In this document: positions 30,094 to 31,684 of the stretch, piece by piece
Layout of the letters: the number at the start of each line of letters is the position of its first letter
Numbering within the stretch: the stretch's first letter is position 1
Origin: Spirochaetes bacterium GWB1_36_13
GTDB lineage: Bacteria; Spirochaetota; GWB1-36-13
Assembly (NCBI GenBank): GCA_001829155.1
Contig: MIAO01000011.1
Span: 2,723 to 66,722, forward strand
Reading direction: 5' to 3'
DNA length: 64,000 nucleotides
Translations under genes and position numbers: made by a program
Notes under the pieces: model-generated
The model's input: only the letters and a program-made list of their open reading frames with translations
Databases searched by the model: none
What the model was told of the DNA's origin: nothing

Positions 30094-31302
30094 CTACACG
30101 CTGTTAGGCGAAGTATTAATATTTGATTTAGGTAAATAATTCATTAAAAATCTTTTTGTTTCATATTTCTTATATTTTGTTTCAGTAACATATATAACAT
30201 GTACATCAAATAAATACTGATCCTTTCCAATATTTATTTTATCATGGGTCAATTTTTCAATTAAATTAATGTCAATTTTTCCTTTTATAATATACTCTTC
30301 ATCTTGAGAATAGACAGAAAAAGATGGTTCTTTTTTATTTATATTTATCTCAAGAAAATAACCCTCAATTTGAATATCGTCTATTATTTCATCGTAATTT
30401 TCGTTAATAATTTTTTTAACAGATTTTGCTTTTTCAATGTTTATCATAGATTCTTTGATTTCATTTGTTAATGGATTAACCATAGCCGCTGTAAAAATTG
30501 CATTATTTTTTATTATATTATTTAATATTATTGAGTAAGAATGAATAAAACTTTGGTCTTTAGAAAATTTTATTAACTCATCAAAATCTTCTTTTTTAAT
30601 TGCATTGAATAAGTCAATAATTTTATTAGTTTTATCATATTCAGGTAAGTCTAGAAAAAGACTTTTTTCGTAATCAATTTCTATTGAAATCCCTAAAGAA
30701 CTTTGCCTTAAATTTGAAAAAGCAAAGTGTTTATCTAATAATCTTGCATCAATACCTAAACTTTTTTTAATTATTTCAACTACTGGATTTAAGATTTTAT
30801 AAATTGCCCAAGGTTTAATATTATTTATTAATGATTGACTTTTTACATAAAGGTCGAGCAAAATCCTTTCTTTCTTTTTTGATGTAGCAATAAATTCTTT
30901 TTTATCTAACTCAGGTTTTCTTTCTGAAATCAAATATTGAAATCTATAATCTAAAGGTATCGGATTTATAAAATCTTGTAAAGGGTATAAATATGTTTCT
31001 AATAAAGTCCCATTTATCATATCATATCTCAAAAAATAAATACTATTATCTTCAGCACGTTGAAAAGCATCATGTAGTGAAAGTTCTCCAGATTTAAGAT
31101 TTGCTAACCTTTCTGGAGATATGGCTATTGCAATTCTATTTTCAAAATTTTCTAGATAATCTACTAAATATGAAACATAATAATGCCCAAGTTTGTTCTT
31201 TTCTAATGTTAATATTGGGTAATCTTTAAAATCAAGCATTTCAATTACTTCTAATTCTAGAAAATTAAAATTTAATTTAAAATTATTATCTATTTTCATC
31301 AA
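30094..31302 (-). CDS. Hypothetical protein, 402 aa, no recognisable domains. It is the downstream gene of a two-gene AT-rich cassette.
   Basis: Long ORF at ~25% GC against ~37% in its surroundings. It overlaps the upstream ORF by 17 nt, and the sequence is Lys/Asn/Ile-rich. No catalytic motif is visible by eye. Confidence 0.55.
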   Translation of the reverse strand: MMKIDNNFKLNFNFLELEVIEMLDFKDYPILTLEKNKLGHYYVSYLVDYLENFENRIAIAISPERLANLKSGELSLHDAFQRAEDNSIYFLRYDMINGTLLETYLYPLQDFINPIPLDYRFQYLISERKPELDKKEFIATSKKKERILLDLYVKSQSLINNIKPWAIYKILNPVVEIIKKSLGIDARLLDKHFAFSNLRQSSLGISIEIDYEKSLFLDLPEYDKTNKIIDLFNAIKKEDFDELIKFSKDQSFIHSYSIILNNIIKNNAIFTAAMVNPLTNEIKESMINIEKAKSVKKIINENYDEIIDDIQIEGYFLEININKKEPSFSVYSQDEEYIIKGKIDINLIEKLTHDKINIGKDQYLFDVHVIYVTETKYKKYETKRFLMNYLPKSNINTSPNSV

Positions 31303-31684
31303 TTTTTTCTATTCTCCTGATAATTAGTTGAGTAAAAGAAAATTGAGAATACAACCAAATATTATAATGCCCACTAGATTCTTTGAATTTTCCAGCACCA
31401 CAATTATTTTCTAGTTTTATTTCAGCTATAAATTTACCTAATATATTATTTCTTTTAATTTTTGCCTCTTTATATGTAGCAATTGTTTGTTCAAATGTTT
31501 TAAAAAAAGAAACCGCATATGCATCACACATATTTTTATAACGAATATTATTGGGAAAAAGTTTTGCATAAGAAAAAAAATCTGATTCTTTTAAAGTATC
31601 TTCCTGAATAATTCTAAAAACAATATGGTCATATTCTCTAATGTCGGGTGGTGGACACTTCGCAGGTAATGTTTCCTTATACAT
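31286..31684 (-). CDS. Hypothetical protein, 132 aa. It is the upstream gene of the AT-rich two-gene cassette.
   Basis: ORF overlapping the 402-aa gene. No recognisable motif. Same low-GC composition. Confidence 0.5.
   Translation of the reverse strand: MYKETLPAKCPPPDIREYDHIVFRIIQEDTLKESDFFSYAKLFPNNIRYKNMCDAYAVSFFKTFEQTIATYKEAKIKRNNILGKFIAEIKLENNCGAGKFKESSGHYNIWLYSQFSFTQLIIRRIEKIDENR

Follow-up and report, generated by a model that had tools for sequence, protein, structure and literature searches.

What is the AT-rich, two-gene cassette carried by Spirochaetes bacterium GWB1_36_13, and does it represent a new kind of bacterial system or a variant of one already described? The cassette, 1591 bp in length, lies within a 64,000-nt stretch of contig MIAO01000011.1 (assembly GCA_001829155.1, positions 2,723 to 66,722), referred to here as the window, which originates from a groundwater metagenome-assembled genome (MAG). 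It consists of a small gene, A, whose product is annotated there as a hypothetical protein, followed by a larger gene, B. The original prediction, made from the letters of the window, was that of a candidate novel defence or abortive-infection module encoding two proteins of no known family. The type of system that was proposed and its location in an islet rich in toxin-antitoxin (TA) genes agree with the present analysis, but its novelty does not, since both proteins proved to have recognizable relatives: the cassette probably represents a divergent branch of PD-T4-10, a family of TA-like abortive-infection systems with two genes each, and was probably acquired by horizontal transfer.

PD-T4-10 was described in Escherichia coli ECOR65 as two overlapping open reading frames (ORFs) spanning 1604 bp and lacking predicted functions (Vassallo et al., 2022; PMC9519451). 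In this prototype, the second protein, B, is toxic, and the first protein, A, is non-toxic, neutralizes B, and is encoded by a gene that cannot be deleted (PMC9519451). The system mediates strong, B-dependent abortive-infection defence against T-even phages, and DUF6575 is among the newly defence-associated domains reported in the same study (PMC9519451). A search for later open-access work on the PD-T4-10 proteins found none.

The basic organization of the spirochaete cassette is as originally described, with two overlapping ORFs of 132 and then 402 codons, both of them intact and located on the minus strand. The larger figure for B counts from a TTG codon, which gives an overlap of 17 nt; an alternative ATG start at 31299 yields a protein of 401 amino acids, reduces the overlap to 14 nt, and agrees with the MKID... 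start of all homologs. The A gene is preceded by AAAGGA, in which a GGA Shine-Dalgarno sequence stands 6 nt upstream of the ATG, and an AGGAG sequence is found 11–14 nt upstream of the ATG of B at 31299. Translational coupling, which had been proposed from the overlap, is supported; in homologous loci the overlap measures 8–17 nt. The low guanine-plus-cytosine (GC) content noted earlier was also borne out: the cassette contains 23.9% GC, relative to a window mean of 37.9% and to 44–46% in the adjacent gltB and gltD genes, making it the lowest-GC 1.6-kb stretch of the window, a level reached in 0.08% of sliding windows. Because this GC content is the window minimum and the closest homologs are found in Bacteroidota (41–45% identity), a foreign origin is indicated. 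Together, these features support the description of A–B as a module of two genes that are coupled in translation and foreign in composition.

The clearest link to a known system came from the A protein. Residues 8–119 of A, or 85% of its length, match the PADLOC model PD-T4-10_A (PDLC04023) over profile positions 23–139 of 148 (E=2.2e-10), and all five members of its subfamily match the same model (best E=1.1e-12), which shows at the level of sequence that A is homologous to PD-T4-10A. Other approaches did not yield a family: neither Pfam nor NCBIfam gave a match to A, 40 of its homologs lack any Pfam family at E<=1, and a word-indexed search with the single sequence returned nothing except a fragment of A itself.

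Assignment of B is more complex, as its domains point to different relatives. Residues 16–91 match Pfam DUF6575 (PF20215; E=1.3e-8, 35 bits relative to a gathering threshold of 26.6), with partial coverage of the profile (positions 12–87 of 218), and nothing was found in NCBIfam. With both A and B thus connected to named families, the statement that neither belonged to one no longer holds. When 1.84 billion cluster representatives were searched exhaustively with a profile, 603 relatives of B were recovered. Among 100 full-length relatives, DUF6575 was detected in 85 (best E=8.6e-40), a match to the PADLOC model PD-T4-10_B in 64, and a match to PDC-M63B in 56. The relatives that match PD-T4-10_B are full-length homologs of the window B protein (A1 hidden Markov model [HMM], positions 4–390; E=1e-16 to 1e-23). 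Their similarity to PD-T4-10_B is confined to the N-terminal ~120 residues (profile ~14–134 of 353), and the remaining ~250 residues match PDC-M63B with E values down to 4e-18. These sequence relationships show that B and PD-T4-10B have homologous N-terminal DUF6575 domains.

The cassette and the E. coli prototype thus have in common two same-strand, overlapping ORFs, small and then large, of similar total length (1591 and 1604 bp), homologous A proteins, homologous DUF6575 N-terminal domains in B, and products without annotated function. They differ in that the window B protein falls below the PD-T4-10_B model and is related to PDC-M63B in its middle and C-terminal regions; in that A is ~30 amino acids shorter at its N-terminus (its profile match begins at position 23, and E. 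coli A has at least 162 amino acids); and in that the present host is a spirochaete MAG. PDC-M63, an unvalidated two-gene candidate in PADLOC, is related through the C-terminal ~250 amino acids of B-family relatives; it differs in that the window A and B proteins match no PDC-M63 model, with only distant B relatives doing so, and in that the PDC-M63B models comprise ~309 amino acids without the DUF6575 domain. The homology of A and of the N-terminal domain of B, the same gene order, gene sizes and overlapping stop and start codons, and conservation of the pair across phyla are shown here. Judged by homology, the cassette is not a new kind of system but a variant that is uncalled by current PADLOC models; the two-gene rule of PADLOC would miss it because B falls short of the PD-T4-10_B model.

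Whether homologs occur together as a pair was one of the checks proposed with the original prediction, and the answer is affirmative. Among 19 independent loci, reached from B homologs, A homologs and plasmid matches, an A-like gene is located directly upstream of B in 16 (the window, L001, L003, L006, L009, L010, L011, L012, L015, L017, L020, L021, L022, L024, L025, and L026), mostly with an overlap of 8–17 nt. The pair is found in Bacteroidota, Firmicutes (Anoxybacter), cyanobacteria, a Pantoea plasmid and a lambdoid-like prophage contig. A search with the close alignment identified three genome loci and no viral loci, tblastn of the window A and B proteins against phage and plasmid collections gave no match, and neither did P0076 against the phage collection. 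A second proposed check concerned the neighbouring genes. Approximately 10 loci lie directly beside restriction-modification (RM) genes, TA genes, integrases, prophage or plasmids (Table 1), and four others have housekeeping neighbours only; the neighbourhoods fit a mobile defence or TA cassette, an enrichment that is qualitative only.

Some loci depart from the common arrangement. B-like genes without an A partner are found at three loci: L018 (6001–7182), L019 (6001–7257), and L027 (3971–5191). One has an AAA-ATPase/PDDEXK neighbour, one is part of an integrase-primase element, and one is carried by an Arthrobacter plasmid beside DUF3800, and they suggest that B is not always dependent on A. 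A Pantoea agglomerans plasmid (NZ_CP134739.1; L020, 2594–4299) encodes a 432-amino-acid DUF6575 protein that has only the N-terminal domain in common with window B, and its upstream partner of 135 amino acids is missed by the PADLOC A model and weakly matches the A-family HMM built here (E=3.5e-5). The L020 pair indicates that the DUF6575 domain travels with A-like partners as the C-terminal module varies. A search by blastn for a counterpart of the Pantoea DUF6575 pair among 5,426 E. coli genomes gave no match. At L025 (6383–7566), the B homolog is frameshifted into two ORFs of 298 and 106 amino acids, a sign of either a pseudogene or a mistake in the assembly.

Structure prediction and remote homology, which had also been proposed as a check, added folds to these family matches. 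An AlphaFold2 model of A built from 40 sequences (predicted local distance difference test score [pLDDT] 94.0) predicts a split β-sheet fold of the ADP-ribosyltransferase (ART)/RES-like type. Its best structural match is MbcT, and others include ArtA, the RES toxins VPA0770, ParT, Res and NatT, as well as Tpt1/KptA, DarT, Tne2, pertussis toxin, and heat-labile toxin. The order of secondary structure elements fits the ART core, with a strand at residues 20–26, a short helical region, a strand at 58–61, a helix at 64–78, and four further strands. Thirteen residues are invariant among homologs with as little as ~20% identity (P7, C10, P11, P12, R24, D35, F36, C53, A55, S59, G96, H106, and W110), two of which are cysteines (C10 and C53). 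R24 within strand 1 (VFR, 20–26) and S59 within strand 2 (58–61), ahead of the helix, occupy the places of ART regions 1 and 2, as mapped by secondary structure order rather than by superposition. At the position of region 3, the start of strand 5, invariant G105–H106 stand instead of the catalytic Glu. The invariance of polar residues at ART active-site positions across homologs of 20% identity argues for a ligand-binding or catalytic site in A.

The AlphaFold2 model of B (pLDDT 93.6, from 100 sequences) predicts a protein built from OB-fold barrels that resembles single-stranded DNA (ssDNA)-binding proteins. In the N-terminal domain, strands extend across residues 18–60 and 87–107 and helices across residues 63–81, forming a small barrel in the DUF6575 core, and the C-terminal ~87 residues are modelled in the canonical five-stranded OB topology. 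Structural matches include the multi-OB proteins LEF-3, Teb1, and p202 HIN2. The predicted resemblance to OB-fold proteins such as SSB, RPA, PriB, and LEF-3 has its differences: B shows no similarity to them in sequence, is an acidic protein without the C-terminal tail of SSB, and is a nucleic acid binder by prediction only. The residues most conserved in the wider B family are P29, S62, E84, S202, P277, G341, and L386, of which S202, in the middle region, is nearly invariant among the 100 relatives; no catalytic motif is apparent in B. Sequence searches of the PDB with profiles of A and B found nothing meaningful.

By analogy with the E. coli prototype, B would act as a growth-arresting effector that is held in check by co-translated A, and infection, by T-even phages in the case of E. 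coli, would disturb A and release B, so that the infected cell might halt growth before phage are released. The models suggest that B may act through binding rather than catalysis, given its OB-fold barrels and lack of a recognizable catalytic motif, and its likely target would be nucleic acid in single-stranded form, or else a protein engaged in handling it. The DUF6575 domain is the likely docking site for A, because it is the sole part common to all B-type proteins that are paired with A-type proteins. A may also be more than a passive plug. It might bind NAD+ or a related nucleotide and neutralize B enzymatically or in a ligand-dependent manner, in the way of type VII TA systems; this speculative step is the least supported, and is favoured over a passive plug because the putative nucleotide-binding site of A looks intact.

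Comparison with characterized TA systems places this proposal in context. Like RES-Xre/MbcTA, ParST, and DarTG, the cassette is a two-gene, TA-type system that includes a small protein of predicted ART-superfamily fold. There, toxicity resides in the ART protein, and an Xre/COG5642 protein or a macrodomain acts as its antitoxin, whereas here the ART-like protein is the counterpart of an experimentally defined antitoxin, its partner is a predicted OB-fold protein, and no relationship exists at the sequence level. Type VII systems such as MntA-HepT and TakA-TglT have in common with it the hypothesized logic of an enzyme-fold antitoxin that modifies its toxin rather than only sequestering it, and differ in having no homology to it. 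We know of no case in which a toxin is ADP-ribosylated by its own antitoxin. A fuller version of the model is quite unlikely to hold as a whole: PD-T4-10 systems would follow a TA logic inverted relative to every known TA pair that contains an ART protein, with an ART-fold antitoxin that uses or senses NAD+ and thereby keeps an OB-fold toxin silent, perhaps through its ADP-ribosylation. Once a phage caused A activity or NAD+ to be lost, B would be free to act on replication or transcription intermediates, and the cassette, lacking a promoter, would be mobile as a unit between its 17-bp inverted repeats, which have integron-like cores.

Several observations weigh against placing the cassette in the PD-T4-10 family as a defence system. 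The window B protein and its close relatives match no PADLOC model, even at E<=10; the likeness of the B family to PD-T4-10B is limited to the N-terminal domain and was judged through the PADLOC model rather than the E. coli B sequence; and its C-terminal two-thirds match a different candidate, PDC-M63B, for which PDC-M63AB gave no defence activity in one native-host test, in E. coli NILS69. Several loci (L010, L012, L024, and L025) lie among housekeeping genes, and the B-like genes that lack A fit poorly with an intrinsically toxic B. The binding activity predicted for B calls for caution as well, since B is acidic in all members (isoelectric point [pI] ~5), with barrel domains of pI 4.6–5.1 and only the middle region basic, which would be unusual for a nucleic acid-binding protein. 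In A, the catalytic Glu is missing, with no conserved Glu near G105–H106, and no sequence-level tie to ART or RES proteins was found in Pfam (40 homologs, E<=1) or the PDB (E<=10); A could be a catalytically dead pseudo-enzyme scaffold. The missing Glu does not imply that A is inactive, because MbcT also lacks the region-3 Glu, having Gly152, yet is among the fastest NAD+-degrading toxins known (PMC6436930).

Some of these observations would be accommodated by a plain addiction or stabilization TA module without a role in phage defence, in which A, as a dead ART-like scaffold, sequesters B in type II-like fashion and the cassette persists as a selfish element. The housekeeping neighbourhoods, the departures of A from ART families, and the PDC-M63AB result would be consistent with such a module, as would the location of the cassette between two decayed TA pairs, vapB with a broken PIN gene on one side and a putative truncated toxin with an XRE gene on the other. 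We regard it as unlikely, since the E. coli prototype confers strong, B-dependent protection against T-even phages (PMC9519451), three homologous loci abut RM systems and another lies in a prophage, and the conservation of polar residues at the ART active-site positions of A, discussed above, argues against a dead scaffold.

A reversal of roles in this subfamily is unlikely as well. In that case, A would be an NAD+-consuming or ADP-ribosylating effector, similar to RES/MbcT or DarT, and B would serve as an OB-fold sensor or regulator that responds to phage ssDNA or SSB-like proteins and controls A. The clear homology of A to E. coli PD-T4-10A, which is non-toxic, neutralizes B and is undeletable (PMC9519451), stands against this arrangement, as does the usual antitoxin-toxin order of a small upstream and a larger downstream gene, even though the ART protein is the toxin in every characterized ART-fold TA system (MbcT, ParT, Res, NatT, and DarT, the top structural matches of A), OB folds are typical ssDNA sensors, B-like genes can stand alone, and the effector region of B is not demonstrably homologous to the toxic E. 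coli B protein. Decaying, non-functional cargo, left by a mobile element and without present activity, is a most improbable description of the cassette, for in spite of the broken PIN and putative HigB-like genes nearby, the 8-codon read-through of B into the flanking repeat, and the frameshift in the L025 homolog, A and B are intact and retain every family-invariant residue, their Shine-Dalgarno sites, and the coupled overlap. A prophage structural or housekeeping function for A or B was rejected, as no such homology was found.

An additional feature is found at the ends of the cassette. It is bounded by a 17-bp inverted repeat with arms that are complementary at 16 of 17 positions (Table 1), which delimits a unit of 1611 bp and leaves promoter-like hexamers outside. 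The downstream arm falls within the final eight codons of B, which extend the protein at its C-terminus and have no counterpart in homologs. L007, a homologous locus with ~45% protein identity, has a different 16-bp repeat (2571–2586 and 4160–4175) in the same geometry, with one arm at −28 from the ATG and the other overlapping the stop codon of B, and L011 has a perfect 10-mer repeat at −22/+8 beside an integrase. In an empirical null of 3000 random placements with the same spacing, the probability of a score of at least 14 was 0.002, and two of 15 loci reach that score. The outer heptamers of the window repeat are GTTAGGC, 29 nt upstream of A, and GCCTAAC, at the 3' end of B, and match the integron core-site consensus, GTTRRRY/RYYYAAC. 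A canonical integron cassette was considered and not adopted: the ends are core-like, but inspection of positions 29960–30100 revealed no R' partner and no convincing hairpin of the attC type. No target-site duplications were seen at the ends of the inverted repeat. The repeat could mark the ends of the cassette, or it could serve in 5'-3' pairing within the mRNA. Promoter and terminator scans of this AT-rich DNA gave nothing above chance, including the sigma-70-like matches upstream of A. Nothing was detected by Rfam and tRNA scans across the entire window, and there is therefore no tRNA or tmRNA integration site.

Table 1. Features of the A–B cassette and its surroundings (positions in the window), and genes adjoining homologous loci.
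Feature	Position	Strand	Description
Gene A	31286-31684	minus	132 aa, ATG; PD-T4-10A-like, presumed antitoxin; predicted ADP-ribosyltransferase/RES-like fold
Gene B	30094-31302	minus	402 aa from TTG; DUF6575-family, presumed toxin/effector
B N-terminal β-barrel domain (predicted)	30973-31257	minus	~aa 16-110; DUF6575 core common with PD-T4-10B
B middle α/β region (predicted)	30394-30927	minus	~aa 126-303; pI 9.0; conserved motif AFSNLRQSSLGIxIE
B C-terminal OB-fold (predicted)	30130-30390	minus	~aa 305-391; β1-β2-β3-helix-β4-β5
Upstream arm of 17-bp inverted repeat	31697-31713		GTTAGGCGAAATATTAA on coding strand; begins 29 nt before the ATG of A, just ahead of the ribosome-binding site
Downstream arm of inverted repeat	30103-30119		GTTAGGCGAAGTATTAA; 16/17 complementary to upstream arm; within last 8 codons of B
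Two overlapping sigma-70-like promoter matches	31753-31798	minus	Upstream of A, outside the repeat-bounded unit; 9/12 matches each
vapB-like (Phd/YefM) antitoxin gene and truncated PIN (vapC) pseudogene	29603-29964	plus	Abuts 3' end of cassette
XRE/HTH_3 gene	32633-32920	plus	HTH_3 match
Neighbours of L001			EcoRI-like methylase and GmrSD/HNH
Neighbours of L003			DUF1016 and ResIII/RE endonuclease
Neighbours of L022			Cytosine methylase, RE_HpaII, resolvase
Neighbours of L011, L015, L019, L020			Integrases or P4-like genes
Neighbours of L017			ParE and DUF6883/DUF4926 TA genes
Neighbours of L021			Prophage recombination/replication module
Neighbours of L010, L012, L024, L025			Purely housekeeping genes

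The immediate surroundings are largely those given in the original prediction, which placed the cassette at a broken PIN toxin gene, near an XRE regulator, and 7 kb from a Septu system. A Phd/YefM-like antitoxin gene (29603–29839) is followed by the first 42 codons of a PIN gene (29836–29964), which end at a TGA codon that replaces the Trp of the PIN motif ASLWEI, and the PIN frame is lost at ~30000; a six-frame reading of 31685–32460, by eye only, found nothing PIN-like beyond the cassette. The XRE gene was confirmed, and directly upstream of it is a 51-codon ORF (32451–32606, plus strand) containing MNKSEWKIIYYEDSESNSEF, which resembles the N-terminus of a HigB/Gp49-type toxin and may be a truncated copy of one. 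If this is correct, the XRE "regulator" would probably serve as antitoxin in another TA pair that has decayed. The intergenic element at 32105–32474 is structured and rich in GC. Terminal inverted repeats of 20 nt (CAAACCCCTAACCCCTTATC-like) lie at 32105 and 32432, and 32151–32186 forms a perfect hairpin of 17 bp. A 68-nt segment of this element (32407–32474) is repeated at 51007–51073 with 94% identity, and the element, which has no Rfam match, may be a repeat resembling repetitive extragenic palindromes (REP) or miniature inverted-repeat transposable elements (MITE).

The Septu genes PtuA and PtuB are present as stated (21118–23032, minus strand; E=2e-138 and 2e-58), 7.06 kb from the cassette, and their GC content of 32% is likewise under the window mean. 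The notion of one defence island encompassing both did not hold, however: the housekeeping gltBD operon lies between them, with Septu on its opposite side, so that Septu and the cassette are two separate AT-rich insertions rather than a single contiguous island. Just upstream of Septu, a same-strand operon of four genes (14853–20681, plus strand) encodes proteins of 241, 393, 845, and 466 amino acids, the second of which matches DrmC/MkoC models through two PLD-like repeats (E=4.5e-24); none of the remaining three is matched by a PADLOC model. This is possibly another defence-type operon.

The proteins of PD-T4-10 had no predicted function when the system was reported in 2022. On the basis of homology, the spirochaete cassette and ~600 clusters of relatives distributed over many phyla are now placed in this family, a branch of which is overlooked by current PADLOC models. 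The predicted ART/RES-like fold of the antitoxin, with its Arg-Ser-His site, and the predicted multi-OB architecture of the toxin provide the first concrete structural hypotheses for the family, and through them the mechanism of this defence system, validated yet unexplained, becomes open to direct tests. If the ART-like A protein is in fact an enzymatic antitoxin, it would represent a new TA mechanism; otherwise, the cassette would simply add a further divergent example to a defence family already known.

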